In this document: positions 9,465 through 55,927 of the stretch, in pieces
Position numbering within the stretch: the first letter of the stretch is position 1
Layout: each line of letters starts with the position of its first letter
Assembly: GCA_002402995.1 (NCBI GenBank)
Contig: DHGX01000003.1
Location: 82,309 to 146,308 of the forward strand
Direction of reading: 5' to 3'
DNA: 64,000 nt
Source: Patescibacteria group bacterium UBA4787
GTDB taxonomy: Bacteria > Patescibacteriota > Patescibacteriia > UBA2591 > UBA4787
Position numbers and translations under genes: made by a program
The notes under the pieces: generated by a model
The model's input: the letters and a program-made list of their open reading frames with translations, nothing else
Databases searched by the model: none
What the model was told of the DNA's origin: nothing

Positions 9465-12400
9465 ATGTCAAAAACAAAAAAGTTTTTCTCGGTGATTATA
9501 ATGACGACTACTATTTTGTGGTCGATGGGTATGCCATCATTAGTTACTGCTTTGTCGGTAACCAGTGTCGTCGTTTCAACTACTTCGGCGGAAATCGCTT
9601 TTGATGGATCTGTCTTGGAAGAAACTTCTCCGTCTTCGGCCATCGAATTGGGTAGCGCCACTAATTATGCCACCGATTTGCGCAATTATATTTTGAAAAC
9701 AGGGGATTCGTTAACTGCTCGTAATTTGAGCAGGTTCGATCCTTATAATATGACCACTCAATATTTACAGGCTGGTGAGAATGATTATCGCATGCGAATT
9801 TATGGCCTGAAGAATCTACGTTTAACAGAAGGACAGGCTTGGGATACAACAGTTCAAGATATTAAAAATAGCGGCGAAACACAAACTGTTACTACCTATA
9901 ATACCAATAGCACGGTTGCCGCTTCAACCGATCCAATTATTGATTATATAACCAACACTCAAACGGGCGATGATTGCAACGGCTGGCCATGCGGTAATAT
10001 CGGCGACGAGGTTACTATCTCTGGTTCAAATTTTGCCACTTCCACAGACGTGGTTCAAGTTTTATGGAGATACGGAGAGGGCAGTAGCGTCACCTCAACT
10101 GTTTCCTCGGTTGATGCCACTACTTTAGTCACTACGATTCCATCAGGAGTCAACAGCGAAGTCACAGTCAATGTCACTAATCTTACGCCCAACCGTTCTT
10201 CAGATTTCCGTTCGTTTGTCGTTTGGAACTCAAGTACTCAAGCGGTGGTGGTTGGCAGTGTCACTTCAACGACCGCTACAGATATAGACGTGGTTAATGT
10301 CCGCGCTTTTCAGCCGGGGCAAATGGGGGCGCCTCTACAATTCGAAACGCACTCAAACGGTAAATACGCGCTCATTTCTCCCGTAACCAGTAGTTATAAT
10401 ATTGAATTTATCACGCCAACTGGCGCGACCAAATCTGCTCCTGCTAAAGTTTCTGGTCAAGTCGCGACCATCGGTTTGATGACAACCGTCTCCGAACAAT
10501 CTTTCCTGTCCGCTACTTTGGGCGGTACCGTCAAAGATCCCAGCGGCGCGACCTTGATGGAGGGCGTGGAGGTTGTAGCTCATAACGCTGATTGGACTAT
10601 AGCTCAAAGAGCTAAGACTGATTTGAACGGTGTTTGGAAGGTTTATGTTCCAAATACTTCTACTAATCAATGTTATACTATTGAAGCCGAACCAAAACTC
10701 TATCATCAGCAAAAACTAGGTTATCAAAAAGGCGCAAGTAGCAGATGTTTGACCTTAGATGAAACCAGCACTAATAATACTATTAATTTAACAACCGCTA
10801 ATGTTACGGGCACAATTAAAACACCGTCTGCCGCCTCCGAAGCCAATCCTTTTCCCGATACGGTTGTGCCGAATGCGGGCGTTGGTTTGCACACATCGGA
10901 TTGGTCATATCAGCAATGGGCCAATACTGATTCAAGCGGCAATTTCTCTTTTGGCGGCGCTTCTGCTGGCACTAATTATGTTTTAGAAATTGAATCGCCA
11001 TCTTCCGGTAATTTTGCCGGTTATGCGAGAACCACTATCCAGGGTTTAACCGTTAACGCGAGCGGAGTGACCAATCTCAATAATGACGCTAAAGCGGTTA
11101 GCGGAGCTTTACGTTTTTCTTTGCCCAATGTTTTTGGAAGCGTGCAATGCGGCGGCGTTAATGAGGCTAATGCTTGGGTGGAATTGCAAAAAGATGGCGC
11201 TTGGTATGGCTCTAACAGCGACAGCTCCGGTAAATTTAAATTCGGTGGCGTATCAATTGGTACATATACTTTACGTATTCAGCCGGTGGTTGGTTCAAGT
11301 TGCGCCACCACCACTTTCTCGGCTTCTATCACCTCGGCGACCAGCAACGACTTAGGAATCAAATCATTATCAACCCCGAACATAAGCGGATCAATAAAGG
11401 ATCCGACTGGCGCGACCGGTCAGGCGAATGTTTGGCTTGATTTGTGTCCTTATCAAAATCCGGGTCAATGTTATGGTGGTCAGACTCAACAGAATGGCTC
11501 GTTTAGTCTTAATGTTCCGGATGGCACTTGGCGTTTAGAAGTTCATCAAGCCTGGGGTAGTATTTATGCTGCTCCGGCGGGGCTTGTTGTCACGGTGTCA
11601 GGCACAACAATATCTGAATATGCTGATCCGAGTAGCGCTTTGAGCATAGCCAATAATCAATTAACTATTTTAATGTCAGATCCGAGCGTGAATGGTTTGA
11701 CTGGTCGTGTTTGTCTTCCGGGAACTAGTGATGTCAACTGCGCTGACGCAAATGAAGCGGTGGGTGTTTCAAATATAGGTGTTAATTTAAGAATAGCCGG
11801 TCAGATGGGCGGAGGTCAGCAATGGACACAAACCGACCAGAATGGTTATTATGCTCTTGGTAGCGTTGCCGAGGGTTCTTATGAGGTGGAAGCCAATCCG
11901 TATAGCGGCTGCGGCGAAACGCAATGCGCTCGAAAAGTGGCTTCTGTGACTGTCACCAGCTCTCAATCGTCAAGAACAAAAAATATAATTCTAACCAGTC
12001 CTAATATCACCGGCACGGTTTATAGATCAGCTACTGATTTGACGCCGGTTCCCAATGCTTGGATTAATATGCATATTGAAGGTCCAATGCAGGGTCCGGG
12101 CGGTTGGTATGGATCTAATACTAATCAAAATGGTCAATTTTCTTTTGGCGGCGTGGTAGCCGGTAATTATGTTCTGGAAATTGAACCGCCGCGCTGGGGA
12201 TCAGAGGAAGAGCAAGCCGCGTATCGTCAATATGCTACGAGAAAATACACGGGCATTGAAATTACAGAAGCAATAGCCGGAGGAGACGCGCTGGATATCG
12301 GAGCGACTTATGGCGCAGGCGGCAAGCTTTATCTTGGCGTGCCTCAAGTTATAGGTCGGGTAATGAATCCCGGTCCGGATGGCATAGCTGGTAATGCTGA

Positions 12401-15400
12401 TGACGCGGCCGTGGCTTGGTCTTGGATTATGGTTCATGACCAAATGTGGCAAAATCAGGGCGGTGGTTCAACCGATGATCAGGGCTATTTTCGTATCGGC
12501 GGTCTTGAGGTCAATAGCACTGGCTTGTCTATTGAAATTAATCTGCCTTGGGGCGGCACACAAGCTTATGTCCAGCCGTCTGGGTTAACGGTTGATATCG
12601 CTAATAACATAGGCGCAATTAAACAAAACAGCAATACTCTAAATAATAATTTAATTACATTAACTTCACCCACCAAAACCTTAACCGGAACTGTTACCAA
12701 AAAGACTGGTGGCGCCGCGATAGCCAATGCTAAAGTTGAAGCTAATCGCGAAATGGGCGGCGGACACTTCGAAACTACTACCGACGCTAATGGCGCTTAT
12801 ACTTTAAAATTATCCGGCGGCGGTTGGTGGGTAATGGTGCGTCCGGATTGGAATTTAACCCAGCCAGACTGGGTTTATGCCGATTCGCCCAAAAGAGTAA
12901 GTTTCGTTGAAGATGATAGTGTTGAATCTTCATCGCAAAATTTTGAAGTAGAAACTTGCGACGCCATTATCACGGGTTTAGTGAAAGATCCGACTGGCGC
13001 TACCGCTATTGCTAATGCTTGGGTTAACGCTAACCGCGGTATGGGTATGGGTAATGGCGGTAATACTGATTCTAATGGCCGCTTTAACTTTAAGGTGCCG
13101 GCTGGTGTTTATGAGTTGGTGGCTAATCCAAATTGGGGTGAGCAGGGCGCTAATTACGCCGCCGCCACTCCGATTAAAATTAAAGCCATTGCCGAACAAA
13201 CAACAGACGCGGGAACTTTAAATCTTAAGAGTAAAAGTTCTCATATTAAAGGCACCATTACGGATACCGCCGGCAATCCGGTTGGCAACGTAATGATTAA
13301 TGCCTGGCAAATGACCGGCTTCGGTTGGGCTTCGGCTTTAAGTAATTCCAGCACTGGCCGTTTTGATTTACAGGTTAGTTCCGGAAACTGGGGTCTAATG
13401 GCAATGCCAATGTCTTCTCAATATGTTTATCAGGGCGGTCCGCAGCAAATCACTATAGCCGACAGCCAAACTTCAGATAATAACGACTTCTTGCTAAAAT
13501 TAGCAGAAGGTTTGTTAAAAGTTAAGATAAAAGACGCTGCTGGCAATAAGATCAGCGATATCTGGGGCGGTGTTTGGGTGCGTGACACTTCAGTTGGCGG
13601 TGATTTTCTGGATTTTGGCAAACCGGAAATGATGGATGGGATGCAGAGCGCCGGTGGTGGCACTGGCGGCGGTTCTGGCGGTATGGCTGGCGGACCAATG
13701 GGTGGAGGTATGGATAAGGGCGGTTTTGCCGGCGGCGGCTTAATGAATGGTTATACAGAGATTAAAGTTCCTTTGGGTAGCTATGAGTTGGGTATTCATT
13801 CCCCGCCTGGTTCAAAATATACATTAGTTGCGACGCAAACTATAACCCTGGGTTCTTCTGACTCTTGCGGCACAACTACGAAATGTAAGGAGCTTGATTT
13901 GGTGGTGGCCCCTAATAATGCTACAATTAAAGGCAAATTTTATTTAGATATTAACGATAATGATGCTTATGATGCCGGAACAGATACGGTGGTTACGGGT
14001 GTCAGAGCGTTTATTAACGGCACCAAAGATGGCGGCGGCTGGGCCATGACCGAATTTGCTCCGTCGTCTAATAGCGATCAATATGAATTGAAAGTAGCTC
14101 CTGGCAGTTGGTATGTTAATGCTTTTATTGATCCCATGATGTCTTTCAGTTCTAATAAATATAAAGTAGTGGCAGCGGACGTGGAAACATCGCCGGCGGC
14201 TAATGGCATAGAAACGCGTAATTTTAAACTCAAAAAACTTGACAAAACTATTAGCGGAACAGTTAAAGATCCGGATGGTGCCGGTATGGGTGGTGTTTGG
14301 GTGTTCGTTGACTACGGCAATTCCGCGACTATGAATCAATTCAAGGGTCCCGGAGGTTTGGGTGTAGGCACCTTCACTGATTCTAATGGCGCTTATACTT
14401 TGAATGTTACGGCTGGTTCTTATAAAATCGGCGTTGGTATTCCGCCTTGGGATGCCAGAGATTTGATTAATCCCGATATGCAAAGCGTAACCGTTGCTGA
14501 TGTTAATATGACTGGTGTTAATATGCAATTTACTGAATCAGATGCTACGATTACCGGTTCAATTTTGTTGAGCGGTAGCAAGAATAAAGCTATGGTTAAC
14601 GCTTGGAGCGACAGTAAAGGAACTGGCACGTTTTCAACTAATGGAGATTATACTTTAAAAGTTAAGTCTGGTGAGACTTGGCATATTCAAGCTTCGGCTT
14701 CTATTAATAATACTCTATATCAGAGCGTGGTCACCGATTTAGTGACAGTTGCTGGCGCTAATAGCAATAATAATTTAACCTTGTTGTCTACAAGTGTTGT
14801 TGTGCCGAATGCAAAAACCACTACGTTCAGCGCCTCGGACAGCAAAACAATAGAATTAAGTAATGGTCTAAAATTAGAAATACCATCAGGCGCTTTAGCC
14901 TCGAGCGGTACGGTAACAGTTACCATTACCCCCACAGTTGACATAGAAGAAACAAAGGTGAAAGCAGACGCTAAAGACAAACCGATCGGCGTTAGCTATG
15001 ATTTTGTGGCTAAAGATTCCACAGGACAAGAAATTACCAGCTTTAATAATGACGTTAAAATAGTTTTTCCTTACACCGAGTCTTTGATTTCCGCGGCTGG
15101 TTATACCGAAAACGACGTAATGCCGAAATATTTTGACGATACCACTAATACTTGGGAAACTTATAAATCTGCTGTCGTTGATACTGTCAATAATACCATT
15201 ACGACAACCAGCAATCACTTTACGGCTGGCGGTTTAACCGGCGGTCAATTTACTATGAGCGGCACTCCCAGCGGCAGTACCGGGGGCAGTGGCAGCGCCG
15301 GTTTAGTCGGACCAACCAATATTTCTGTTAACATTAACAGCGGAGCCGTGAAAACTTCTACGCGAAGCGTTACTTTGAATTTGGCGGCCAGCGGAGCAAT

Positions 15401-16235
15401 GGAAATGATAATCAGCAACCATTCAGATTTCTCTGGCGCGAATTGGGAGTCCTTTGTTTTCACTAAAACTTGGTTATTAGGTTCTGGCAATGGCGAAAAG
15501 AGTGTTTATGTTAAATTCCGCGATGCTCTTAATAATAGTTCTTCCATTGTTTCAGATATTATTAATCTAGAAGAAGCAAGTAGCCCGACCGAAACTCTAG
15601 AAGTTCTAAAAGAAAAGAGTTTGGTCAAGACTGCTGATTCTCCCGCTCTTTATCTTATCTTAAACGGCAAGAGACATGTCTTCCCGCATAGCGTTGTTTA
15701 TAAGTCTTGGGGCTATCCGTCTAATTTCTCAACGGTTAAGACCGTAGCTAAAGATGTTTTAGAGCAATACGCCGAGGGTGATCCGGTTCCATTCCGCGAC
15801 GGCTCATTATTCCGCGGCACCAAACAGTCTTTATACGGCAAGAGCGCTTCCGCTGTGTATGTTGTTTCGGACGGCAAACTAATGCCCATTAAATCATCCG
15901 CCGTCTACCAGACTTTATTCAAGGATCCAAAATGGAAATTGGTAACTTGGGTTCCGGATGATTTATTGAACAAGTTCGCTTATCCTCTGGGTGAAATAAT
16001 AGAATCAACTAATGTCCATCCTAACGGCGTCTTAGTTAAATATGCCGACTCCGCGACAACTTATTTGATTGTGGGCGGCAAGAAAAGAGGATTCACCTCT
16101 AATAGCGCTTTGGCGACCAATGGTTATAAGGATAGGACGGTTATTACTATTCCTAAAACGGAAATTTACGAGAGCGCGGAAAGTATTAGCGCCTTAGTCG
16201 ATGAATTAACCACTCCGCTCTTAGCTGTGAAATAG
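9465..16235 (+). CDS. Giant secreted/cell-surface protein (2256 aa) with a signal peptide, multiple carboxypeptidase-regulatory-like beta-sandwich repeats, a Gly/Met-rich low-complexity segment, and a C-terminal ~190-aa tandem-duplicated domain shared with the next giant protein.
   Basis: N-terminal TM/signal segment FSVIIMTTTILWSMGMPSLVTA. Recurrent G(T/S)(V/I)KDP(T/S)GAT...A.V repeat units. Glycine-rich segment SAGGGTGGGSGGMAGGPMGGGMDKGG. C-terminus VKTADSPALYLILNGKRHVFPHSVVYKSWGYP...VPFRDGSLFRGT...WVPDDLLNKF is about 55% identical by eye to residues ~35-220 of the 18657 protein. Confidence 0.8.
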   Translation: MSKTKKFFSVIIMTTTILWSMGMPSLVTALSVTSVVVSTTSAEIAFDGSVLEETSPSSAIELGSATNYATDLRNYILKTGDSLTARNLSRFDPYNMTTQYLQAGENDYRMRIYGLKNLRLTEGQAWDTTVQDIKNSGETQTVTTYNTNSTVAASTDPIIDYITNTQTGDDCNGWPCGNIGDEVTISGSNFATSTDVVQVLWRYGEGSSVTSTVSSVDATTLVTTIPSGVNSEVTVNVTNLTPNRSSDFRSFVVWNSSTQAVVVGSVTSTTATDIDVVNVRAFQPGQMGAPLQFETHSNGKYALISPVTSSYNIEFITPTGATKSAPAKVSGQVATIGLMTTVSEQSFLSATLGGTVKDPSGATLMEGVEVVAHNADWTIAQRAKTDLNGVWKVYVPNTSTNQCYTIEAEPKLYHQQKLGYQKGASSRCLTLDETSTNNTINLTTANVTGTIKTPSAASEANPFPDTVVPNAGVGLHTSDWSYQQWANTDSSGNFSFGGASAGTNYVLEIESPSSGNFAGYARTTIQGLTVNASGVTNLNNDAKAVSGALRFSLPNVFGSVQCGGVNEANAWVELQKDGAWYGSNSDSSGKFKFGGVSIGTYTLRIQPVVGSSCATTTFSASITSATSNDLGIKSLSTPNISGSIKDPTGATGQANVWLDLCPYQNPGQCYGGQTQQNGSFSLNVPDGTWRLEVHQAWGSIYAAPAGLVVTVSGTTISEYADPSSALSIANNQLTILMSDPSVNGLTGRVCLPGTSDVNCADANEAVGVSNIGVNLRIAGQMGGGQQWTQTDQNGYYALGSVAEGSYEVEANPYSGCGETQCARKVASVTVTSSQSSRTKNIILTSPNITGTVYRSATDLTPVPNAWINMHIEGPMQGPGGWYGSNTNQNGQFSFGGVVAGNYVLEIEPPRWGSEEEQAAYRQYATRKYTGIEITEAIAGGDALDIGATYGAGGKLYLGVPQVIGRVMNPGPDGIAGNADDAAVAWSWIMVHDQMWQNQGGGSTDDQGYFRIGGLEVNSTGLSIEINLPWGGTQAYVQPSGLTVDIANNIGAIKQNSNTLNNNLITLTSPTKTLTGTVTKKTGGAAIANAKVEANREMGGGHFETTTDANGAYTLKLSGGGWWVMVRPDWNLTQPDWVYADSPKRVSFVEDDSVESSSQNFEVETCDAIITGLVKDPTGATAIANAWVNANRGMGMGNGGNTDSNGRFNFKVPAGVYELVANPNWGEQGANYAAATPIKIKAIAEQTTDAGTLNLKSKSSHIKGTITDTAGNPVGNVMINAWQMTGFGWASALSNSSTGRFDLQVSSGNWGLMAMPMSSQYVYQGGPQQITIADSQTSDNNDFLLKLAEGLLKVKIKDAAGNKISDIWGGVWVRDTSVGGDFLDFGKPEMMDGMQSAGGGTGGGSGGMAGGPMGGGMDKGGFAGGGLMNGYTEIKVPLGSYELGIHSPPGSKYTLVATQTITLGSSDSCGTTTKCKELDLVVAPNNATIKGKFYLDINDNDAYDAGTDTVVTGVRAFINGTKDGGGWAMTEFAPSSNSDQYELKVAPGSWYVNAFIDPMMSFSSNKYKVVAADVETSPAANGIETRNFKLKKLDKTISGTVKDPDGAGMGGVWVFVDYGNSATMNQFKGPGGLGVGTFTDSNGAYTLNVTAGSYKIGVGIPPWDARDLINPDMQSVTVADVNMTGVNMQFTESDATITGSILLSGSKNKAMVNAWSDSKGTGTFSTNGDYTLKVKSGETWHIQASASINNTLYQSVVTDLVTVAGANSNNNLTLLSTSVVVPNAKTTTFSASDSKTIELSNGLKLEIPSGALASSGTVTVTITPTVDIEETKVKADAKDKPIGVSYDFVAKDSTGQEITSFNNDVKIVFPYTESLISAAGYTENDVMPKYFDDTTNTWETYKSAVVDTVNNTITTTSNHFTAGGLTGGQFTMSGTPSGSTGGSGSAGLVGPTNISVNINSGAVKTSTRSVTLNLAASGAMEMIISNHSDFSGANWESFVFTKTWLLGSGNGEKSVYVKFRDALNNSSSIVSDIINLEEASSPTETLEVLKEKSLVKTADSPALYLILNGKRHVFPHSVVYKSWGYPSNFSTVKTVAKDVLEQYAEGDPVPFRDGSLFRGTKQSLYGKSASAVYVVSDGKLMPIKSSAVYQTLFKDPKWKLVTWVPDDLLNKFAYPLGEIIESTNVHPNGVLVKYADSATTYLIVGGKKRGFTSNSALATNGYKDRTVITIPKTEIYESAESISALVDELTTPLLAVK

Positions 16236-16535: not shown

Positions 16536-17084
16536 ATGTTCAAGTTTCAGGAGAAAATTTTATTAAACGAAATTAAAAGAGGCGATCAAGCGGCGTTGGG
16601 GAAATTATATAATGAATATGCTGACAAGATTTATCGCTTTATTTATTTTAACGTTTCCAGTATCGATAACGCGCAAGATTTAACCAGCCAACTTTTTATT
16701 CGTTTATTAAATTATTTGGCGAATAATCAAAAAGCGGAAATAGAAAATCTGCAGGCTTTTTTATTCGCCATGGCGCGCAATCTTCTTACTGATTTTTATC
16801 GTTCCAATTCAAATAGATTAGAAACGCCGATCGATGAATTTATTGAAGAGAATATTTCGGACAGGCATAATTTCGAAGATCTGCTAAATGATAAATTAGA
16901 GATAGAAGCTTTGGACGAGAAATTAAAATTTTTGCCAGACGACTATAGGGAGATTATAGTTTTGCGTTTTATCAATGAGTTTAGTTTTAAAGAAATTGCC
17001 AATATTATTAATTCTTCCGAAGGAAACGCCAGAATTAAGGCCTTTCGCGGTCTTAAAATGCTTAAAAATAGCTTCAAATCATAA
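16536..17084 (+). CDS. ECF-type RNA polymerase sigma factor (sigma-70 family, regions 2 and 4).
   Basis: Region-2-like YNEYADKIYRFIYFNVSS...AQDLTSQLFIRLL. Region-4 HTH LPDDYREIIVLRFINEFSFKEIANIINSSEGNARIKAFRGLKMLK. Confidence 0.8.
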   Translation: MFKFQEKILLNEIKRGDQAALGKLYNEYADKIYRFIYFNVSSIDNAQDLTSQLFIRLLNYLANNQKAEIENLQAFLFAMARNLLTDFYRSNSNRLETPIDEFIEENISDRHNFEDLLNDKLEIEALDEKLKFLPDDYREIIVLRFINEFSFKEIANIINSSEGNARIKAFRGLKMLKNSFKS

Positions 17085-17184
17085 AAAGCCTTTGTCTGTG
17101 CGGATTTTCACTTCTATTCTCTACTTGCTATTTTCTACTTTCTAAATTTCTTGTAACGTTTCTGTTTTTATATCGTCTTAATAT

Positions 17185-17324
17185 ATACCAGGCAGTGAAA
17201 ATTCGATGAGGTTCTGGCGCGACCATAACAACAGGCTAGTTCAATAAAATTGAGCATATAAGTTGTTTAAGTAAGTTCGCCGGAATTATAAATAATTAAT
17301 TATCGAATTTCTACTGCCCGGTAT
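17185..17324 (+). repeat. Inverted-repeat bracket element, copy 1. Left end ATACCAGGCAGTGAAAATTCGAT, right end ATCGAATTTCTACTGCCCGGTAT, about 95 nt of unique sequence between.
   Basis: One of four copies (others at 27783-27925 inverted, about 42885-43217, and 55786-55927) that share about 23-nt termini but differ internally. Each lies directly 5' of a gene, in that gene's orientation. Confidence 0.75.
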
Positions 17325-17356
17325 AGAACTTAAGAAGATTATGAATAAGATCTTTT

Positions 17357-18247
17357 ATGAGTAATCCTCGAACCAGCCTTTCGCAAGGCTTCAAAAAATT
17401 ACAAGCTATCCAGCCGAATTATAACTGGCGGAAGCAATTTGAAGACAACCTTAAAGAGAGGCTGGTTTTTGTTTTTCCTAAACAGGAGGGCGGTTTTATC
17501 CGCCAGTTGGCGGACTTTTTCAAATTTGACTTCGCCCTTAAACAAGGAGTTGTTTCTCTTATGGTTTTAGTTCTATTCTCTTCTTGCGGTTTAATTTACG
17601 CGTCGCAGAATTCTATACCCGGTGGCCGCCTTTATGCTTTAAAGCGGTCGACCGAGAAAGCCAGAATGTCTTTAGTCTTGAATCAAAAGCAAAAAATAGC
17701 ATTGCGCGCCGAAATTATTTCTAATCGTCTTGGTGAAATGAAAGAATTATCTAAGCAGGGTGAGTTGAGTGACGCGCGGGCTAAAAATGACCAGGCTCAA
17801 TATTTGGCTACTGCTCAATCCGACATTAAAAAAGAATTTAAAGCGTTAAAAAAAGATTTGTTAGCCGAGCAATCGGTTGGCTCTTTGGAACCAACGGTAA
17901 TTGATGAAATTTCTTCTCCGATTAATGACGACAAGCAAATCGTGAACGATTCGACCATTTCAGACTTAGAGCAAACCATGAAAGAAACCAAACGATCGCT
18001 CAAAGAAAATGATTTAGTCAGCGCTTTGCAAAAAACATTGGCCGCGGAAAATAAATTGTCTAATGCTTCTCAGGCGACCTCAACCGCGGAGCAAATTAAT
18101 TCTCCCGAGCTCGACAAAACAATGGCGCCGACTAATTTGAATAATCAGAAAAGATACAATAAAGAAATTAAGTCTAATGATTTCCGCATTGATAATTTTC
18201 AGAGGGAATCAGAAATCCAGAGCGGCATAATGATCAGAGAAAAATAA
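17357..18247 (+). CDS. Putative membrane-anchored anti-sigma factor-like protein (DUF5667-like, coiled-coil).
   Basis: Directly downstream of the ECF sigma factor. Single TM segment GVVSLMVLVLFSSCGLIYA, followed by a long charged/coiled-coil periplasmic region. Function inferred from context only. Confidence 0.4.
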   Translation: MSNPRTSLSQGFKKLQAIQPNYNWRKQFEDNLKERLVFVFPKQEGGFIRQLADFFKFDFALKQGVVSLMVLVLFSSCGLIYASQNSIPGGRLYALKRSTEKARMSLVLNQKQKIALRAEIISNRLGEMKELSKQGELSDARAKNDQAQYLATAQSDIKKEFKALKKDLLAEQSVGSLEPTVIDEISSPINDDKQIVNDSTISDLEQTMKETKRSLKENDLVSALQKTLAAENKLSNASQATSTAEQINSPELDKTMAPTNLNNQKRYNKEIKSNDFRIDNFQRESEIQSGIMIREK

Positions 18248-18656: not shown

Positions 18657-21600
18657 ATGTCAGGTTTAAAGAAATTCGTTGTCGTGAGCGTTACTCTCGC
18701 TTTTGTTCTCGTGCCGCTGTTAGGACCTGCCAGTTTCGCTAATGCCGTCACAATCGTGGATGGCGATTTAGTCAAGACTGCCAGTTCTTCAGCTGTTTAT
18801 TTGATTCAGGGAACCACCAAGAGAGTTATGCCTCACGCTAATGTCTATGCTTCTTGGGGTTTTCCGGCTGATTATTCAACCGTGAAAACCGTTTCCGCTT
18901 CTGACTTAGCCGCTTATACTGATGGCAACGCGGTTCCATTCCGCGATGGTTCATTGTTCCGCGGCACAGCCACTAGCTTAGGAGGCAAAGACAAAACCGC
19001 TGTTTTTTATGTTGAAGGTGCAACATTAAAACCGGTCGTTTCAGAAGCTGTTTATCAGGCTTTATTCAAAGATGCGAATTGGGCGAAAGTCACCTGGGTT
19101 CCAGATGATTTATTGACCAAATTCAGCTACCCAATGGGCGCGGATCTTACTTCCGCGACTACGCACCCGAATGGTGTTTTGATTAAATATAGTAATGATC
19201 CGTCAAAGATTTATTTAATCTCCGGCGGTTCAAAAAGATTATTTTCTTCAACCGCTGCTATAACTGCCAATCGATATAGCCTTTCTAGTGTCATTTCTAT
19301 TGACGCTAACGAAGTTTATGCCGACGGCGAACCGATTACTGGCGTCGAAACCGCGCTTTTAACTGCTGGCTGGGCTGGTGTAACCACCCCTGTTACCGGC
19401 GGTTTAACCGTCAGTTTAGATTCCTCTAATCCAGTTGGCGCCACTCTTCCTCCGACTGCGGCCAACGTTGAACTTTTAAAGGTTCGTTTAACCGCCGGTT
19501 CTACGGCTGTTAATGTTACTGGTATGACCTTTAAGAGAAATGGTATGGGCGCGACTGGCGACTGGACTTCTCTGGCCGTTTATGAAGGTGGCACTCGCTT
19601 GGTTTCTACTGGCAGAGCCATCAGCTCCGATAACCACGAAGTTGAGTTCCCGGTTTTGGCTGTTGCCATTCCGGCTAATTCTTCTAAGGTTGTCGTGTTG
19701 CGCGGTACTGTCAGCAATCCGGGCACAACCGGTGGTCGTCACTATTTCTCCGTGAAAGCAGTGGCTACGACCGCTACCGTTGCCGGTTTACCGGTTAATG
19801 GTAATGAATTTGTTATCGGTGTTACCGGTGGCAGCACTGTGACCGTGGCCGCTGGCTCCTCTCCTTCAAACCCAAATATCGGCGCTCAAGCCGCGGAAAT
19901 TGCCAACTTTAAATTAACCGCTGGCACCAATGATATTGAAGCCAAAGAAGTAGTTTTGACCTTAAGCGGTTCTTTGGCCAGGGCTTCTGTTACCAATCTT
20001 AAGTTATATCAAGAGGCGACTTTGTTGGCTTCGGCCGCGAGCGTTAATTCTAATGATACCGCTACCTTTACTTTGGCCGCGCCTTTCACTATTTTAAAGG
20101 GCGCTAACCGTATTTTCACGGTTAAGGCTGATTTAGGTGGACGCGTCGCCGAAACTTTAACCATTAAAATCGACGATGTTGATCATGTCACCGCCGTTGA
20201 TAAAGTTTCTCTTTATGGCGCCGCGATAACCGGCCCGTCTGTTACTTTGGCTACTGTCATTATGCAAGGCGGCACAGTCACTTTGGCTGATAACGGCCCG
20301 TCTGCCGGCACTATCATCAAGAACAGCCAGGATGTTGTTTTAACCAAATTCTCCATAACCTCAGCCAGACAGGTTGAAGTTAAGAAGTTGAATGTTACTT
20401 TGGTTAGCGACGGCACCAATCTCTTGGATATCGCTGGTAACGCCGTATTAGATACTGATACTATCGCGGATTTAAGAATTAAAGATTTGGACACCGGCGC
20501 GACCGTTGCTTCAAAACCTTTAACTCTTTCTAACTGTGTGGCTGCCACTGGTTGTAAAACCGAAGATGACGCGACCGATACCGCTGGCAATAACACTTGG
20601 CAGTTAACCGATTCTTTCTACTTAACTCCTAATGTTACCCGCCACTTGGCTGTGACTGTTGATATCGGCACTGCCACTCTCTTGGCTAACGAGTATCTTC
20701 GCGCTGATGTTAAATCGGTTGTCCATACTGCTGCCACCGATTACGAATATCGCGATGTCGCTACCGGAGATTACATCAAATTAGCCGACGTTATTCCTGT
20801 TAGCATCTCTGGCGATAACCAAACCATTAAAGCTTCGGCTTTAACTATGAGTTTGGCTTCTACTCCGGTTTCTTCAACCGTGGTTAAGGGCGCTACTGGT
20901 GTTGACGCTCTCGGCGTTGTTTTCACCGCCGGCGATTCCTCCGATATTAGATTAACTTCGCTTCAAGCTCGTGTTTATGTTTCTACGGTTGCTGCTCCTC
21001 GCGCTGACGGCGCTACTACCGGCACCGAAGTTACTACTCCAAACGCCAACATCCTTTCAGCTAAATTGTATGATGGCGACATATTGCTTTCTACGAAGAC
21101 CTTGTCTAATACTAGTGGCAATGCCACTATTGCCCATGATTATGGTAAAGTGACCTTCGATGGTTTGAATGTCATTGTTCCTAAATCCTCCAACAAGAAA
21201 TTAACGATTAAGCTTGATACCAATCAAACTCAATCCGCGGAAATTTTTGTGGCGGTTTCTATTTTGGGCGATGAAGAAGTTACCGATCCCGCTACTGCTG
21301 ACGGCAATATTACTGCTTATGATTCCGATTCTAATACTGTTGACGTTACTTCAAACGTTAATATATTGCACGCTACCAATGCCCCGTCAATTTATATTAA
21401 CGTCAAGTCTGTTGGCACCTTGAATATGGCTACTGACGCGGAAACCCCGATTTCCGACATAGTCTTGAGTGGCGCTACTGGCGTTGCTATCTCCAAGATT
21501 AAATTCACCGCGACCAACGAAACTTGGACCGTGAATAAATTGAGAATTAAGTTAAACACCGCTGCTGCTGAAGGTAGTATTAGTAAAGTTATAATTTCAC

Positions 21601-22544
21601 CTGAAGGCGGTACTGCTGTTGACGGCTATCTTACTACGGTTAGCAGTGTTTCTTACGTCCAATTCTCTAATCTTGGCTGGGTGATTCCGGCTGGCACATC
21701 TAAAGTTTTGACTATCAAGGCTGATCTTAAGGCCATTGATCAAAACTACGCTGAAACCGGCCGCGAAATTAAGCTCGGTGTAATTGATGGCACTGGTACT
21801 ACTGACCAATTTGAGGCTGTGGGTACTTCTCAAACCACTTTATCCGAAGCTAGTTCTACCGGCGACAAATACGGCAATCCGATGTATTTAAGAAAGTCAA
21901 AACCCACAGTTACTAGGACCGCTTTAGACAGCGCCATTTTAGCTGAAGGCACGATGACTCTCTTCAAATTCAACGTGGCCGCTGATGCCGCTGGCGCTGT
22001 TACTCTTAAGAAAGTTGCCTTTGATGTCATTCCGAGCGATGCTTCTTCTGACACTTTGCAGGCCACTACTTGGGCTCTTTATGATTCGGTTGATATGAAT
22101 ACCGCCATAGCTGGTGTTTGGTCCAATGGTTCTGCTTCCAGCACTTCCGGCGCTTGTGCAATCACAGCCGCCGCTCCTGGAACAGTGAGTCTTGAGATGA
22201 CTAATGAGAAAGAAATTGCCGCTGGTTCTTCTAAGACTTTTGTCTTAAAGGGCGTAGTTAGCAATTCTGCTCAATATGATTCAATCATCACTAGATTAAG
22301 CTCTACCAATGACACTGCCGCAAACTTTGTCACTGGTGGCTTGGTTCAAGACACTACTGGCCAAGAGTTGGTGAAGCTTGATACTGGCGCAACTACCAAA
22401 TCCGTTTCGTTCTTATGGTCTGATAAGGCCAGAGGCGTCTACCATGCTTATGGTGATGGCACTTATGGCAGCACTTACTTAGACTGGACAAGCGGTTACC
22501 TGGTTAAGACTTTACCGACCGAGTATAGCGCGCTTTCTAGGTAG
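18657..22544 (+). CDS. Giant secreted/cell-surface protein (1295 aa). N-terminal signal peptide, then the shared ~190-aa tandem-duplicated domain, then Thr/Ala/Val-rich Ig-like repeats.
   Basis: Signal FVVVSVTLAFVLVPLLGPASFANA. N-terminal VKTASSSAVYLIQGTTKRVMPHANVYASWGFP...VPFRDGSLFRGT...WVPDDLLTKF matches the C-terminus of the 9465 protein. The remainder is low-complexity beta-rich repeats. Confidence 0.8.
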   Translation: MSGLKKFVVVSVTLAFVLVPLLGPASFANAVTIVDGDLVKTASSSAVYLIQGTTKRVMPHANVYASWGFPADYSTVKTVSASDLAAYTDGNAVPFRDGSLFRGTATSLGGKDKTAVFYVEGATLKPVVSEAVYQALFKDANWAKVTWVPDDLLTKFSYPMGADLTSATTHPNGVLIKYSNDPSKIYLISGGSKRLFSSTAAITANRYSLSSVISIDANEVYADGEPITGVETALLTAGWAGVTTPVTGGLTVSLDSSNPVGATLPPTAANVELLKVRLTAGSTAVNVTGMTFKRNGMGATGDWTSLAVYEGGTRLVSTGRAISSDNHEVEFPVLAVAIPANSSKVVVLRGTVSNPGTTGGRHYFSVKAVATTATVAGLPVNGNEFVIGVTGGSTVTVAAGSSPSNPNIGAQAAEIANFKLTAGTNDIEAKEVVLTLSGSLARASVTNLKLYQEATLLASAASVNSNDTATFTLAAPFTILKGANRIFTVKADLGGRVAETLTIKIDDVDHVTAVDKVSLYGAAITGPSVTLATVIMQGGTVTLADNGPSAGTIIKNSQDVVLTKFSITSARQVEVKKLNVTLVSDGTNLLDIAGNAVLDTDTIADLRIKDLDTGATVASKPLTLSNCVAATGCKTEDDATDTAGNNTWQLTDSFYLTPNVTRHLAVTVDIGTATLLANEYLRADVKSVVHTAATDYEYRDVATGDYIKLADVIPVSISGDNQTIKASALTMSLASTPVSSTVVKGATGVDALGVVFTAGDSSDIRLTSLQARVYVSTVAAPRADGATTGTEVTTPNANILSAKLYDGDILLSTKTLSNTSGNATIAHDYGKVTFDGLNVIVPKSSNKKLTIKLDTNQTQSAEIFVAVSILGDEEVTDPATADGNITAYDSDSNTVDVTSNVNILHATNAPSIYINVKSVGTLNMATDAETPISDIVLSGATGVAISKIKFTATNETWTVNKLRIKLNTAAAEGSISKVIISPEGGTAVDGYLTTVSSVSYVQFSNLGWVIPAGTSKVLTIKADLKAIDQNYAETGREIKLGVIDGTGTTDQFEAVGTSQTTLSEASSTGDKYGNPMYLRKSKPTVTRTALDSAILAEGTMTLFKFNVAADAAGAVTLKKVAFDVIPSDASSDTLQATTWALYDSVDMNTAIAGVWSNGSASSTSGACAITAAAPGTVSLEMTNEKEIAAGSSKTFVLKGVVSNSAQYDSIITRLSSTNDTAANFVTGGLVQDTTGQELVKLDTGATTKSVSFLWSDKARGVYHAYGDGTYGSTYLDWTSGYLVKTLPTEYSALSR

Positions 22545-26410: not shown

Positions 26411-27784
26411 TTATGCGCCAAAAAATTTAATTGCTCTGGCTAATTCTTCGTGATCTTTGGCGTATTCGTTAATATCTATCTTTTTCTGATATGCTTCGCA
26501 GGCCTGCAAAACGGCCATGGCGCCGGCCCTGGTGCCATCTGGATGCGCGTGTACGCCCGCGCCCATCGTGGTTATGAAATCAACCGTGCCCATGATATCA
26601 ATAATCGCTTTTAATTTTGTCGGATTAAGCCCGCCGGAAAGAATAGGTGTAGATTTTTGAATGCCACGCCATAATTCATCGTTTAAATTTAAAGAGTTTG
26701 TTTCGTCCTCGGCTTCTATACGAGCTAAATCTTTATCGGCGTGGGAAATTTTTCCCCATTTTTGGGAAAAGAAATATCCCTCGGACTTGAATTTTAAAAG
26801 CGCGTGCGAGGCGACTAAATCTTCGTCCGGACTGCCAGCCATTTTGCCGATCCCTGACGTCCCTACATGAATACCCGAAGCTCCGGCTAATCTGGCGAAT
26901 TTAGCCAAAACTAAATTAGTGAAACCAATCGGATTTTCTTCTCGGGTGAAAGCGCCGTGCATGGCGCGATGGAAGTGCAGAAACACGTCGGGATAGCGCC
27001 GTCTGATGGTTTGAACTGCCGTCCAACCAGCCGTAATTCCATCAACCAAAAAAGCATAACTGCCCGGCTCAAAAGTGTCTTTAATTAAGTCGGCTCTTTT
27101 AATCATTGCGTCAAAATCAGCAGCCGAGATATTGAAGGAATGTATTTTTTTACGTCCGGTTTCTTGGACTGCTTTATCCATTGCTTGTTTGACGTATTTA
27201 ACCATGTGTTCATAGGGGCAAAAATCTTGATCAGCTTGCGGCTCGTCGTTTTTAACGAAGTCGCCACCACCCGACCAAAAATCATAACAGACTTCCGCGT
27301 ATTGAGAAGCGGTTAAGCCCATTTTGGGTTTAATAATTGCGCCCAAGATCGGTCGATCATAAACATCTAAATATTTTCTTAAATTATCAATATTGCGGGC
27401 TGGGCCGTCGTATTGTTCTAACATTTCCGCAGGAAACCACACGTCTAAAAGTTTTAACGCCTTAGCTTCTTTCATGCCGAAAACATTGCCGACGATAAAA
27501 GTTAAGATGTTTTGAATGTTTCCGCCTCGGTCAAATAAACGCCACGGATAGGCGATCCAAACCAAATTCTTTTGTTCATCAACTTTGTAAACTAAGGCGT
27601 CTAAGGAATGGGAAAAATCAGTGGCCGTGCCTACTTCTATGTTCGAGCCGGTTGATGATTCGGCTGCCACTTCGGTGGCCGCGGATAAAAGATCGCCACT
27701 CTCCGGAACTAAGTGAAAAACGGCTAACATATATTGGCCGTTCTGCGGATTATTTAGATCTAATTTAAGATAAGCTTTTTGCAT
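26411..27784 (-). CDS. rbcL: Ribulose-1,5-bisphosphate carboxylase/oxygenase large subunit, form II/III-like (CPR/archaeal type).
   Basis: RuBisCO large-subunit motifs IKPKMGLTASQYAEVCYDFWSGGGDFVKNDEPQ (carbamylated Lys and Mg ligands present), HFHRAMHGAF, GGLNPTK. Length 457 aa. No small-subunit gene adjacent. Confidence 0.85.
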   Translation of the reverse strand: MQKAYLKLDLNNPQNGQYMLAVFHLVPESGDLLSAATEVAAESSTGSNIEVGTATDFSHSLDALVYKVDEQKNLVWIAYPWRLFDRGGNIQNILTFIVGNVFGMKEAKALKLLDVWFPAEMLEQYDGPARNIDNLRKYLDVYDRPILGAIIKPKMGLTASQYAEVCYDFWSGGGDFVKNDEPQADQDFCPYEHMVKYVKQAMDKAVQETGRKKIHSFNISAADFDAMIKRADLIKDTFEPGSYAFLVDGITAGWTAVQTIRRRYPDVFLHFHRAMHGAFTREENPIGFTNLVLAKFARLAGASGIHVGTSGIGKMAGSPDEDLVASHALLKFKSEGYFFSQKWGKISHADKDLARIEAEDETNSLNLNDELWRGIQKSTPILSGGLNPTKLKAIIDIMGTVDFITTMGAGVHAHPDGTRAGAMAVLQACEAYQKKIDINEYAKDHEELARAIKFFGA

Positions 27785-27925
27785 ACCAGGTAGTAGAAAT
27801 TTGATTAGTTTTATTATTTAATTTCATAACAAAAATAAATATTGGATTATTCATGGTCAGTATAACGTAAATTACACTTCCTTACCAGTAGAAATAAATA
27901 TATCAAATTTTCACTACCTGGCATA
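27783..27925 (-). repeat. Inverted-repeat bracket element, copy 2 (inverted). Its right-end repeat terminates in the RuBisCO start codon (ggtATG).
   Basis: On the minus strand it reads ATGCCAGGTAGTGAAAATTT...ATCAAATTTCTACTACCTGGTATG, followed by caaaaagc. The terminal ATG is the rbcL start at 27782-27784. Confidence 0.7.
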
Positions 27926-28191: not shown

Positions 28192-28632
28192 TTAATTTTT
28201 GACCTTCCGGTCCTGCTGAAGATTAATCAGGTGAGATTTTAAAAAACGCTCAATACTCTTGATTGCCTGGTCTTTCACTTCAGATGGGCTTTGCGCTATC
28301 CAAATGGCAAAATTATAAAGCTCCTGATTGTCAACTTTCAGCCATTTTTTATTTTTATAAAGAAAATAGAACAAAGTGGTTATGGCGATTCGCTTATTGC
28401 CATTCTGAAAAGGGTGATTTTTATTTAGTAAATAAAAAAGAATAGCCGCCTTGCCGAGCAGTCCTTTATAAAGCGGCTTCTTTTGAAAGGTTTGAAAAGG
28501 CACGGCAACGCAACTCTCTAAAATATTAGGATAACGAGTCTCAAAATCGGGAATTGGCTCGTTGAAGCTCATTGATTCTCGAGCTAATTGAAAGGCAACT
28601 AATTTTATTTGTACCACATTAACGGTTTTCAT
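28192..28632 (-). CDS. doc: Doc (death-on-curing)/Fic-fold toxin of a type II toxin-antitoxin pair.
   Basis: Fic/Doc active-site motif HPFQNGNKRIA. Gene overlaps the upstream small HTH gene by 1 nt, a typical TA arrangement. Confidence 0.75.
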   Translation of the reverse strand: MKTVNVVQIKLVAFQLARESMSFNEPIPDFETRYPNILESCVAVPFQTFQKKPLYKGLLGKAAILFYLLNKNHPFQNGNKRIAITTLFYFLYKNKKWLKVDNQELYNFAIWIAQSPSEVKDQAIKSIERFLKSHLINLQQDRKVKN

Positions 28633-42875: not shown

Positions 42876-42884
42876 ATTTATATA

Positions 42885-55675: not shown

Positions 55676-55785
55676 AAACTGTTATGTGGTATGTTTATAT
55701 TTTATTTAGTAAAAAGACAACTCATTAGTATATTGGCTCGACCAAAGATTTGAGAAAAAGAATTTAAATAAAACAAAAATATATG

Positions 55786-55927
55786 CCAGGTAGTGAAAAT
55801 TCGATAGTGCTTTTGCTTCATTCCATTGCCCGGTCTCATCATTAATAAAATAACCAATTCTTTGCTTCCAGCGTGTTTCTTAATAATCACACTTTAAGAA
55901 GCATCGAATTTCTACTACCTGGTATGG
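55786..55927 (+). repeat. Inverted-repeat bracket element, copy 4, in the dnaK leader. Its right end reads ggtATGgcaaaataa, which is a 3-codon ORF.
   Basis: Left end ATGCCAGGTAGTGAAAATTCGAT, right end ATCGAATTTCTACTACCTGGTATG. Confidence 0.75.

Follow-up and report, generated by a model that had tools for sequence, protein, structure and literature searches.

The Correia (NEMIS) elements of Neisseria, with their 26-bp repeats and TA duplication, are not known to have an autonomous partner and lack precision for start codons. As a rule, MITEs stem from insertion sequences that encode DDE transposases. The IS200/IS605 and REP/RAYT systems rely on a Y1 HUH transposase that forms a covalent intermediate, carry subterminal hairpins and generate no target duplication, and the GIY-YIG homing endonucleases (I-TevI and the free-standing Seg enzymes) possess an extra DNA-binding domain and depend on double-strand break repair into one cognate allele. 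The Ssn nucleases are specific for single-stranded DNA (ssDNA) and guided by hairpins (PMC11893778), and the NTS-ssnA-NTS layout of SsnA of Neisseria meningitidis was called ‘IS-like’ by the authors, with mobility hypothesised only (Chenal et al. 2025, PMC11893778). According to the available part of a further report, the rRNA genes of CPR bacteria hold small GIY-YIG-encoding insertions that are not group I or II introns (PMC11270868).

The element analysed here is apparently undescribed: no published description was found, and the view of an earlier note, made from the letters alone, that it is not a described element agrees with searches of the literature and of Rfam, in which none of the four loci has a match, at the gathering threshold or at E ≤ 1. 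Within the window (the whole 64-kb stretch of DNA that was analysed), the 20-nt core CCRGGYAGTGAAAATTYGAT and its partner ATYGAATTTCTACTRCCYGG have exactly eight matches, which form four inverted pairs. The expectation from shuffled sequences is 0.07 and 0.03 matches, and none of 100 shuffles reaches eight, so the shared termini that had been noticed at four loci are real. Their length is 20 nt, rather than about 23 nt; the outer AT(A/G)...TAT(G/A) bases that had been counted with them belong to a direct target-site duplication (TSD) of 4 bp, which is TATG in three of the window copies and TATA in one, not the AT/TA that the flanks had seemed to suggest. Of the two fixed differences between left and right ends, GA versus AG is present in 4 of 4 copies, and the second, G versus A, is a product of the TSD. 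The same applies to the pairing of the ends, where the outer G-U wobble is TSD and the GA/AG mismatch occurs in every copy.

Copy 1 is a 134-nt non-autonomous element on the plus strand (17188-17321), with a 5' arm of the GA type (17188-17207), a 3' arm of the AG type (17302-17321) and a TATA duplication upstream (17184-17187) that is repeated directly downstream (17322-17325). It is located between an ECF sigma-factor gene (16536-17084) and a DUF5667 gene (17357-18247), 35 nt before the latter and not at its ATG, which corrects the description of each copy as lying directly upstream of a gene. On folding, the arm stem of copy 1 has z=-8.2 as RNA and z=-4.3 as DNA. Copy 2, on the minus strand, is likewise non-autonomous and has a length of 136 nt (27786-27921; 5' arm of the GA type, 27921-27902; 3' arm of the AG type, 27805-27786). 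Its upstream TATG (27922-27925, minus strand) opens a 25-codon upstream ORF (uORF), MPGSENLIYLF..., and rbcL (26411-27784, minus strand) takes its start codon from the ATG (27784-27782) of the downstream TATG (27782-27785, minus strand).

The large copy 3 is a 327-nt element of the autonomous type on the plus strand (42887-43213; arms 42887-42906 and 43194-43213), which encloses, as had been observed, exactly one GIY-YIG nuclease ORF (42919-43194, plus strand; 91 aa from its ATG; Pfam PF01541, E=8e-17). The rpsO stop codon lies 8 nt before the upstream TATG (42883-42886), and the duplicated ATG begins a uORF of 9 codons (42884-42913, plus strand; MPGSENSIA followed by a stop) that crosses the 5' arm and terminates with a TGA 5 nt ahead of the nuclease ATG, in the frame that in most relatives is joined to that of the nuclease. 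The nuclease might alternatively start from a TTG at 42910, and its stop codon TAA shares a base with the first position of the 3' arm. The ATG of the downstream TATG (43214-43217) starts the NYN-domain gene (43215-43724), so that the terminal ATG of the element indeed supplies the start codon of both rbcL and the NYN gene, as the earlier note had stated.

Copy 4 is a 137-nt non-autonomous element on the plus strand (55786-55922; arms 55786-55805 and 55903-55922), preceded by TATG (55782-55785) and followed by a stretch (55923-55950) that consists of the downstream TATG (55923-55926) and a degenerated second version of the 5' end of dnaK, TATGGCAAAATAATAGGTATCAATAG. The short reading frame that had been noticed in this copy, ATG GCA AAA TAA, is confirmed as a 3-codon ORF upstream of dnaK; the intact dnaK start, TATGGCAAAAATTATAGGTATTGACC, is found at 55991 and the dnaK ORF extends over 55992-57869. 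The dnaK start may have been rebuilt.

The search of other genomes for the termini detected the same arms in many of the ultrasmall Patescibacteria (CPR). More than 111 loci were identified in species-representative genomes, nearly all of them from Patescibacteria and spread over many classes, along with at least 600 GIY-YIG stretches in metagenomes; the nuclease family comprises 1198 protein clusters. Matches in Paenibacillus, Salinicola, Limosilactobacillus and other non-Patescibacteria are single and unpaired hits to a degenerate pattern and were treated as chance. The arm pattern has no match in IMG/VR and hence gives no hint that phages carry the element, and the plasmid collection contains only distant homologues (~40% identity). 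The CPR rRNA insertions come from the same group of organisms and are likewise small, non-intron insertions with a GIY-YIG gene. They sit in rRNA genes, and the available part of the report describes neither arms nor target duplications for them and lacks the term ‘inverted repeat’ (PMC11270868); for comparison, none of 20 scanned GIY-YIG loci lies inside an rRNA gene, the Rfam scan of these loci giving tRNAs only.

With lengths of 60-85, 128-152 or 313-330 nt, the copies make up three size classes. Elements of the largest class are each taken up by one ORF for a single-domain GIY-YIG nuclease, and the two smaller classes, which keep the arms and have no ORF, can accordingly be regarded as MITE-like derivatives. 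Most copies belong to this ORF-less kind, including three in the 64 kb of the window. Among the 82 arm pairs from the 111 genome loci and the 68 pairs from metagenome loci, none is longer than 369 nt and none encloses a DDE, HUH or other transposase; given this size limit, no other transposase sits between such arms. The terminal inverted repeats, the TSDs with empty sites and the small, non-coding, multi-copy nature of the miniatures are all those of MITEs, and a partner with identical arms exists, the sole gene of which encodes the GIY-YIG nuclease. The earlier suggestion that a GIY-YIG-encoding mobile element gave rise to a MITE-like family is supported by the same arms around copies of 60-150 nt and of ~320 nt, by the TSDs and by the empty sites, with the difference from MITEs in general that the only associated gene is that of a GIY-YIG nuclease. 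The miniatures also resemble the Correia elements in being non-coding units of 60-150 bp with terminal inverted repeats, a TSD, many copies, frequent co-transcription immediately upstream of genes and long hairpins in the transcript; unlike in the Correia elements, the duplication is 4 bp instead of TA, and the repeats of the two families are unrelated in sequence.

The DNA of the element can be as low as 65-75% identical between copies. Copies with shared interiors occur within one genome, as same-genome families, and most of the miniature interiors are unrelated between genomes; the interiors of the four window copies had likewise been described as unrelated, which does not hold for that of copy 4, akin as it is to the interiors of loci L018, L049, L091 and L094. 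An origin of the miniatures by internal deletion of the GIY-YIG copy was rejected because no similarity of their interiors to the ORF could be detected, nor, in most cases, any between the interiors themselves. The notion that the interiors are conserved hairpins was dropped as well, the mean z being only -1.2 on either strand; a subset nevertheless contains a clear GC hairpin beside the upstream arm, and GTTCCGC-AAA-GCGGAAC, found in many miniature copies, is similar in flavour to SRM. An outward -10 box before the 3' arm (TATAAT) occurs in several copies of 62-69 nt and is not general.

That the elements are mobile DNA inserting with a 4-bp TSD, preferably into TATG at start codons, is shown by their boundaries and targets. 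An exact 4-bp TSD is present in 50 of 81 and 36 of 52 elements in two sets, and its sequence varies: TATG is the most common, and CATA, CCTC, GAGG, TGGA, TTGA, CGTA, TAAG and others are also observed. The comparison of orthologous loci with and without the element, which the earlier note had proposed, yielded three pairs of filled and empty sites (L083/L098, L089/L096 and L062/L103), and eight tandem arrays have one shared 4-nt duplication. Many different host genes are targeted, and the duplicated ATG is the start codon of the host gene in 34 of 36 cases in genomes and 35 of 36 in metagenomes. As background, start codons account for 6.5% of all TATG sites and for 23% of the sites that are non-coding or starts. 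Specificity for TATG combined with the purging of intragenic insertions would be expected to give 23% at most, compared with the observed ~95%, and was rejected as the cause of this preference. In lineages that use Shine-Dalgarno sequences, the target is GAGG. Targeting of leaderless promoters was considered too: -10-like boxes are found 5-9 nt upstream of 47% of the targeted ATGs versus 33% of comparable background ATGs, a difference that is suggestive and not significant.

Exact-protein look-ups of the NYN, rbcL, dnaK and DUF5667 genes in near-identical strains detected no empty allele; the contigs of these strains show the same spacing or end at the element. The sharing of the four window copies by near-identical strains, together with interiors of the miniatures that are mostly unrelated between genomes, suggests that most copies are old.

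The nuclease is a single-domain protein (PF01541 only; 91 aa in the window, ~90-100 aa in the family), its catalytic-type residues are invariant, and the family dN/dS of 0.11 indicates that the ORF is under purifying selection. The ORF and the host gene always point in the same direction: when the flanks of 52 unique GIY-YIG elements are read in the ORF orientation, they are of the ATG type in 44 and CATA in none. It is fused in frame to the upstream duplicated ATG in 22 of 38 unique elements; the fused ORFs read MPGSENS(I/T) across the 5' arm, and 17 of these 22 have their stop exactly 20 nt upstream of the host ATG. Among the 16 frameshifted copies, the stop of the uORF overlaps or abuts the internal ATG in 8, and among database nuclease proteins, 37 of 50 start with MP(G)SE.... 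This fit of start, arm and stop is maintained across copies only 65-75% identical in DNA, and the host ATG lies within the 20-24-bp stem.

The AlphaFold model of the window nuclease (pLDDT 89.8) is a single domain, with UPF0213 and Slx1 as the closest folds (TM 0.62-0.65, rmsd 1.4-2.1 Å; over ~71 residues in the case of Slx1), and these two are also the only PDB matches by sequence, with weak E-values and no Ssn structure to be found there; I-TevI matches the model far less well in structure (E ~0.5). Slx1 is a eukaryotic DNA repair protein with a RING domain that requires Slx4 and cuts branched DNA at junctions between duplex and single strands. It is not encoded by an element; as the best crystal-structure match to the predicted core of the nuclease, it has the activity that would be needed in the mechanism proposed below.

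By sequence, used here as a proxy for assignment to the Ssn family (CDD cd10448; SsnA of N. meningitidis, CAX49033.1), the window nuclease is 41% identical over 66 aa (E=2e-15, hhalign probability 98%) to an SRM-flanked GIY-YIG protein of Azospirillum, which has four flanking SRM/NTS hairpins and a C-terminal third unlike that of the window protein. The Ssn enzymes share with it the single GIY-YIG domain, a length of ~94 aa and the association with a short, abundant, orientation-specific hairpin repeat next to genes. The layouts differ in that an Ssn gene lies between small separate hairpins, whereas the gene here is inside one long hairpin, between 20-bp inverted arms; 4-bp TSDs, defined boundaries, empty sites, start-codon or Shine-Dalgarno targets and a borrowed ATG have not been reported for Ssn. 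The SRM motif HGTCWYN(0-2)YYVSBRHN(0-5)WNVSBRGN(0-2)RNCYNB has no match in the window and four in the positive control L194, so the window does not contain the canonical NTS/SRM system.

The 20-bp arms are complementary except for one dinucleotide, GA versus AG, and are heterotypic in 149 of 150 elements (81 of 82 from genomes and 68 of 68 from metagenomes). Relative to the internal ORF, the GA/AG order is 57:11, with both orientations occurring, and the orientation bias relative to the target is ~85:15. Because both orders are found while the ORF always follows the host gene, the arms do not have an identity of the insertion-sequence type, and the comparison with distinct left and right ends made in the earlier note fails. 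The constant is that the arms are never of the same type, which reads as a fixed tandem mismatch, G·T/A·C, in the folded stem. As DNA, the two strands both fold, and the mismatch takes the form of a 2x2 internal loop. The folding and covariation analyses that had been suggested gave RNA z-scores of -4.9 to -8.2, the TATG flanks adding G·U pairs on the sense strand, and compensatory double changes at 9 of the 20 stem pairs (73 cells versus 27±4 in shuffles, reached in 0 of 500). This covariation is not proof of a hairpin since two arms co-evolving with one DNA-binding protein would mirror each other's changes too. Outside the fixed site, there are only 0-1 G·U pairs per column in 52 sequences; with G·U so scarce and both strands folding, nothing points to a constraint on the sense RNA alone, although one may exist.

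We consider it probable that these elements are a foldback mobile family of Patescibacteria in which the nuclease moves both full and miniature copies via a folded ssDNA hairpin. The element would land on a host translation-initiation site and express the nuclease from it, the host protein then being made by termination-reinitiation. The arms would act as a folded ssDNA hairpin with the fixed G·T/A·C tandem mismatch, and the nuclease would recognise this hairpin and cut at the stem/flank junctions, mobilising full-length and miniature copies alike. The mismatch would render the hairpins of the two strands distinguishable, which would explain the ~85:15 orientation bias. GIY-YIG enzymes act by hydrolysis and are not known to carry out strand transfer, so that a step performed by a ligase or by repair must be assumed. 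With the IS200/IS605 and REP/RAYT elements, the family has in common the very small size, a presumed dependence on imperfect DNA hairpins, a tetranucleotide target, oriented insertion and miniature derivatives; it differs from them in having a GIY-YIG ORF only, terminal inverted arms and a 4-bp TSD, and the latter fits a staggered duplex cut better than ssDNA insertion in the style of IS200/IS605. The further proposition, that the family is a new class of prokaryotic DNA transposon with a GIY-YIG nuclease as the only protein, an ssDNA hairpin and a start signal as the target, is advanced tentatively, its chances being put just short of even. The transposase classes recognised to our knowledge are DDE, DEDD, HUH, serine, tyrosine and Cas1, and the GIY-YIG chemistry is not among them.

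An unlikely alternative is that ordinary MITE arms are moved by a transposase encoded elsewhere and that the GIY-YIG gene is a selfish, homing-type passenger in the loop. GIY-YIG enzymes include the classic free-standing or intron-borne homing endonucleases, the nuclease has a weak match to TIGR01453, the majority of the copies have no ORF and no transposition chemistry is known for the fold; the homing enzymes also share the selfish context and the preservation of host gene function. They have no inverted arms, target duplication or miniature derivatives, however, all three of which are found here, and they carry a separate DNA-binding domain, whereas the nuclease has a single domain. The absence of longer arm pairs and of any transposase between the arms in both the genome and the metagenome sets also speaks against a passenger, as does the fit of the ORF to the arms to the nucleotide, from a start in the duplicated ATG to a stop overlapping the 3' arm.

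We regard as quite improbable a domesticated pair of repeat and nuclease comparable to NTS/SsnA of Neisseria, with the hairpins kept by the host as ssDNA signals and the nuclease restricting or modulating incoming or replicating ssDNA, for example in natural transformation; present-day mobility would then be incidental. The relationship of the nuclease to an SRM-flanked, Ssn-type enzyme is in line with this scenario, and so are the copies that look old and are fixed in near-identical strains and the ‘solo’ GIY-YIG genes without a 3' arm that occupy a conserved context; Ssn modulates transformation in Neisseria (PMC11893778), and Saccharibacteria are naturally competent according to the available part of another report (PMC10187176). 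The varied exact TSDs, empty sites, tandem re-insertions and within-genome families are nonetheless marks of real insertion events, the nuclease gene lies within the repeat unit rather than beside it, and the canonical SRM is absent from the window.

A primary role as transcribed RNA, with a long 5' hairpin regulating or processing the mRNA, for instance through RNase III as with Correia elements, and with the tandem G·U/A·C as a feature of the RNA, is very unlikely: all copies are in the transcribed 5' region at a position fixed relative to the start codon, their RNA folds are very stable and the sense strand with its TATG flanks gains G·U pairs, but there is no Rfam match even at the relaxed threshold, G·U is nearly absent elsewhere in the stem, the mismatch is identical on the two strands, both of which fold, and such a role, which may coexist with mobility as its consequence, would leave the TSDs and the enclosed nuclease unexplained. 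The structured RNA cassette suggested in the earlier note may exist as a side effect.

If the foldback reading is correct, a mobile-element role would be assigned to the tiny Ssn-like GIY-YIG nucleases, a large family of which most members are uncharacterised, and one more nuclease fold would be added to the transposition enzymes. At ~320 bp, the element would rank with the smallest known mobile elements of the autonomous kind, with the target's own ATG serving as the start codon of the nuclease. Its small size, defined hairpin substrate and 4-nt target could also make the nuclease useful as a tool, as has been argued likewise for the Ssn enzymes. For genome annotation, it matters that genes such as rbcL and the NYN gene have their start codons in a stem that derives from the element. 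Short-read contigs break at element copies. The element would be a minimal parasite that needs neither its own promoter nor its own ribosome-binding site or start codon, translated ahead of the host protein, and landing on the host start codon and duplicating it would explain its persistence in the very compact genomes of Patescibacteria.

The four copies in the window belong to a widespread and apparently undescribed family of mobile elements that are bounded by hairpin arms and duplicate 4 bp of their target. The earlier note's repeated paired termini are real: when both end consensi are scanned over the window and the loci are read directly, exactly eight matches are found, in four inverted pairs, compared with 0.07 and 0.03 matches for the two consensi in shuffled sequence. 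The pairs lie at 17188–17321 (+), upstream of the DUF5667 gene (copy 1); 27786–27921 (−), at rbcL (copy 2); 42887–43213 (+), at the NYN gene (copy 3); and 55786–55922 (+), near dnaK (copy 4). In each pair, one arm reads ...AGTGAAAAT... and the reverse complement of its partner reads ...AGTAGAAAT..., so that, of the two positions at which the ends were said to differ, the GA versus AG dinucleotide holds in all four pairs, and the G versus A position belongs to the duplicated flank. The termini are arms of 20 nt, rather than about 23 nt, with a 4-bp duplication, because the bases beyond the CC...GG core are direct, not inverted, repeats (TATG...TATG at three copies, TATA...TATA at copy 1). The outer G-U wobble formerly assigned to the stem arises from this duplication, outside the arms. 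The terminal ATG does supply a start codon, namely that of rbcL and of the NYN gene, and the copy described as holding one GIY-YIG gene, here 327 nt instead of 333 nt, encloses a single such ORF (PF01541, E=8e-17).

The sigma-factor/DUF5667 pair with copy 1 lies between two very large predicted surface proteins of 2256 and 1295 aa (9465–16235 and 18657–22544), whose N- or C-terminal modules are related. Just upstream of the rbcL element, a Fic/DOC-family gene (28192–28632, −) overlaps by 1 base an 85-aa HTH_17 gene (28632–28889, −), a pair that looks like a toxin-antitoxin module.

The termini are also common in other genomes and metagenomes of Patescibacteria. Scanning one genome per species for exact matches to CCRGGYAGTRRAAATTYGAT yields at least 111 loci; among the matches listed, all come from Patescibacteria of many classes, bar a few unpaired ones taken as chance, and the groups represented are Paceibacteria, Doudna-, Berkel-, Komeili-, Lipton-, Yanofsky- and Portnoybacteria, and Saccharibacteria. 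Once mismatches are allowed, these genome loci contain 82 arm pairs, and many seeming orphan arms turn out to have a 1-nt bulge in one arm. The elements measure 59–97, 120–161 or 313–327 nt, with outliers of 220 and 369 nt; nothing longer than 369 nt lies between such arms among the loci listed, and the 369-nt case is a composite of several elements. All 313–327-nt copies in this set carry the same GIY-YIG ORF. Interiors are shared by copies within one genome (E14_metabat.bin.6, H32-bin107) and are mostly unrelated between genomes. A metagenome scan with an alignment of the element proteins gives at least 600 stretches, 228 of them confirmed, and a protein database holds 1198 clusters of the nuclease. 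The best 120 of these (73–100% identity; 86–104 aa, except for two calls, of 130 and 146 aa) bear only the names ‘GIY-YIG nuclease family protein' or ‘putative endonuclease'. There are zero matches in 2.9 million viral contigs, and the literature searched contains no description of a GIY-YIG transposon or of such elements in Patescibacteria. At three loci outside the window that encode its dnaK and DUF5667 proteins (L198, L199, L204), short-read contigs stop at the element, 84–95 nt upstream of the genes; assemblies thus break at these repeats, and MAGs will under-represent them. A lone GA-type arm lies within a stretch of at least 200 nt that is identical in three MAGs assigned to different groups, Kaiserbacteria, Peribacteraceae and Paceibacterota (L023 ~974, L054 ~2378, L055 ~6312); the sharing could be due to recent transfer, or to an artefact of binning or assembly.

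Insertion is evident from the flanks. Both 4-nt flanks are identical in 50 of the 81 oriented elements among the genome loci listed (TATG 31, CATA 5, CCTC 4, and singletons such as TTGA, TCAT, TCAA, TAAG, CGTA, AATG, CATG, TATA and GAGG) and in 36 of 52 elements of an independent set anchored on the GIY-YIG ORF (TATG 30, TGGA 3 to 5). Comparison of filled with element-free orthologous loci shows the expected insertion pattern in three pairs: filled L083 reads ...TCTTATG[element]TATGATATTA..., against ...CTATATGATAATT... in empty L098, and L089/L096 and L062/L103 behave alike. Eight tandem arrays consist of two elements with one TATG, TGGA or TTGA between them, which is what re-insertion into the regenerated target would give. 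More complex arrangements include a second small palindromic insert within an element (L088 ~3750–3910), an element that occupies another's loop and has a TTGA duplication (L097 647–792), and several arms stacked upstream of one sigma-factor-like gene (L078 6072–6440).

The covarying arms contain a conserved tandem mismatch. A GA-type arm is paired with an AG-type arm in 81 of 82 genome pairs among the loci listed and in 68/68 ORF-anchored pairs; a homotypic pair, that is, a perfect palindrome, was never found among them. The two forms do not mark fixed left and right ends, one of the readings suggested earlier: because both orders occur (57 GA-first and 11 AG-first relative to the ORF, with a similar ratio, 31 TATG to 5 CATA, for the ORF-less miniature copies relative to the target), the dinucleotide is not a left/right mark. 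It ensures instead that stem positions 10 and 11 form a tandem G·T/A·C mismatch whichever strand folds. With arms taken from the ORF-anchored set by position, not by complementarity, compensatory double changes are found at 9 of 20 stem pairs (for example, TTCGAT/ATCGAA, TTCGAC/GTCGAA, CTCGAC/GTCGAG, TGCGAC/GTCGCA and CCCAGT/ACTGGG), with 73 covarying cells versus 27±4 in shuffles (0/500); 94% of the cells are paired, and G·U is almost absent outside the fixed site. Mirror changes in both arms would also be expected if both tracked a single DNA-binding protein; stronger evidence for folding comes from the obligatory heterotypy. The termini fold as RNA in the sense strand (z −4.9 to −8.2), and as DNA in both strands, with a 2×2 internal loop at the mismatch (z −3.4 to −4.8). 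A regulatory RNA hairpin is less well supported than a mobile DNA hairpin, although such a role could coexist with mobility. The 3' arm of all copies (e.g. window 43198–43207) includes AATTTCTACT, which is identical to the conserved 10-mer of Cas12a (Cpf1) CRISPR repeats. Cas12a is present in some CPR genomes; the likeness is probably a coincidence because the other parts of the Cas12a repeat hairpin are missing.

The full-length form has a single gene, which encodes a small GIY-YIG nuclease and begins at the duplicated host ATG. The ORF runs in the same direction as the downstream host gene, and in ORF orientation the flanks are of the ATG type in 44 of 52 unique GIY-YIG elements and CATA in none. 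The upstream ATG is in frame with the nuclease in 22 of the 38 unique elements that have one, giving a product of 97–101 aa whose N-terminus, MPGSENS(I/T), is the translated 5' arm; starts of this type are present in 37 of the 50 longer database proteins fetched. In 17 of these 22 elements, the stop codon overlaps the 3' arm by its first base and is exactly 20 nt away from the downstream host ATG. The remaining 16 are frameshifted between the upstream ATG and the nuclease, and in 8 of them a short upstream ORF ends on or beside the internal ATG (ATGA, TGATTATG); window copy 3 is of this kind (MPGSENSIA*, TGA, 5 nt, ATG). The reading frame, the read-through of the arm and the stop position suggest that the nuclease would be expressed from the host's own initiation site and that the host protein would be made by reinitiation 20 nt downstream of the nuclease stop. 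Solo GIY-YIG genes (L152, L162, L166, L169, L183, L184, L190) have an arm and TGGA upstream, without a 3' arm. A conserved membrane-like gene comes next, joined to them through an ATGA overlap, and the solo genes may be copies that were immobilised or domesticated.

The AlphaFold model of the nuclease (pLDDT 89.8) consists of the GIY-YIG core and a long C-terminal helix. Among solved structures, it most resembles UPF0213 and the nuclease domain of the structure-specific endonuclease Slx1 (TM 0.62–0.65, rmsd 1.4–2.1 Å); I-TevI is a far weaker match. The one closely relevant system found in the literature is the Ssn family, single-domain GIY-YIG nucleases of 94 aa whose cutting is confined to ssDNA, beside an orientation-specific hairpin repeat (NTS/SRM); Ssn genes are often flanked by these repeats, an arrangement that the authors call ‘identical to ... 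insertion sequences' (PMC11893778). A plasmid-borne Azospirillum homologue with four SRM copies around its gene shares 41% identity with the window protein (E=2e-15, hhalign 98%); the SRM motif has no match in the window. By analogy with Ssn, a small GIY-YIG enzyme that reads a DNA hairpin, the nuclease may mobilise the elements by acting on folded ssDNA. A domesticated Ssn-like system is less well supported than this model and could coexist with mobility. A passenger nuclease is likewise the less well supported reading. The ORF is under purifying selection (median dN/dS 0.11, 277 pairs) with invariant GIY-YIG motif residues. About a third of the miniature copies contain a GC-rich hairpin directly inside the arm that is upstream in host-gene direction (e.g. 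L005 6421–6549, L070 1634–1763, L032 1740–1875, L011 5593–5732), variable in stem sequence (GTTCCGC-AAA-GCGGAAC; GTTTCGCC-TAT-GGCGAAAC) and fixed in position; it resembles the hairpin core of the Neisseria and Azospirillum NTS but fails the published SRM pattern. In L062 (~3690–3750, −), the 5' arm is interrupted by an inserted 20-nt GC-rich hairpin (CCTGCCTGCCGGCGGGCAGA), which separates AGT from GAAAAT at exactly the site of the conserved mismatch dinucleotide. Some CPR rRNA-gene insertions described in a study of these (PMC11270868) encode GIY-YIG and are not introns; they may or may not be related to the hairpin elements.

The elements reside precisely at start codons or Shine-Dalgarno sites. 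In TATG/CATA duplications, the ATG opens an ORF that either has at least 40 codons or leaves the contig in 34 of 36 cases in the genome set; with a minimum of 50 codons instead, and ORFs that leave the contig again counted, the metagenome set gives 35 of 36. The dnaK copy of the window is one exception. Directly after it, at 55923–56016, come a decayed second dnaK 5' end (TATGGCAAAATAATAGGTATCAATAG), ~40 nt of AT-rich sequence with TATAAT, and the intact start (TATGGCAAAAATTATAGGTATTGACC), as if the element had landed on the original ATG and the dnaK start had been rebuilt further downstream. TATG specificity combined with loss of intragenic insertions does not explain the start-codon position because, by crude gene calls on 678 kb of element-bearing loci, start codons make up only 6.5% of all TATG sites and 23% of non-coding-or-start TATG sites, far below the share seen. 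Related targets recur: 323-nt GIY-YIG elements occupy the start codon of orthologous 846-aa genes, 67% identical, in two genomes, at L042 (1479–1801) and L053 (2170–2492), with closely related nucleases and swapped GA and AG arm types, and several lineages have elements at NYN genes (window, L015, L046) or at an MBL-fold gene (L027, L035). In the TGGA subfamily (L118, L144, L160, L177, L193), the duplication lies inside an apparent tiny ORF, M(L)YWWTG*.

Saccharibacteria and Berkelbacteria instead carry the element in GGAGG, laid out as GAGG[element]GAGG, and the downstream GAGG serves as the Shine-Dalgarno site, given that the ATG follows 4 to 7 nt further on. In the ATG-class lineages, Shine-Dalgarno motifs are rare: they precede ~11% of the genes found by crude calling, and 1 target among 43 has one. 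A −10-like box lies 5–9 nt before 47% of targeted ATGs versus 33% of background ATGs with T at −1, a non-significant excess that hints at leaderless genes; across the loci with ATG-class elements, such a box is found 5–9 nt before the ATG in about a quarter to a third of crudely called genes. The Shine-Dalgarno and box frequencies across these loci suggest that, in these Patescibacteria, many genes lack a leader or do not depend on Shine-Dalgarno sites.
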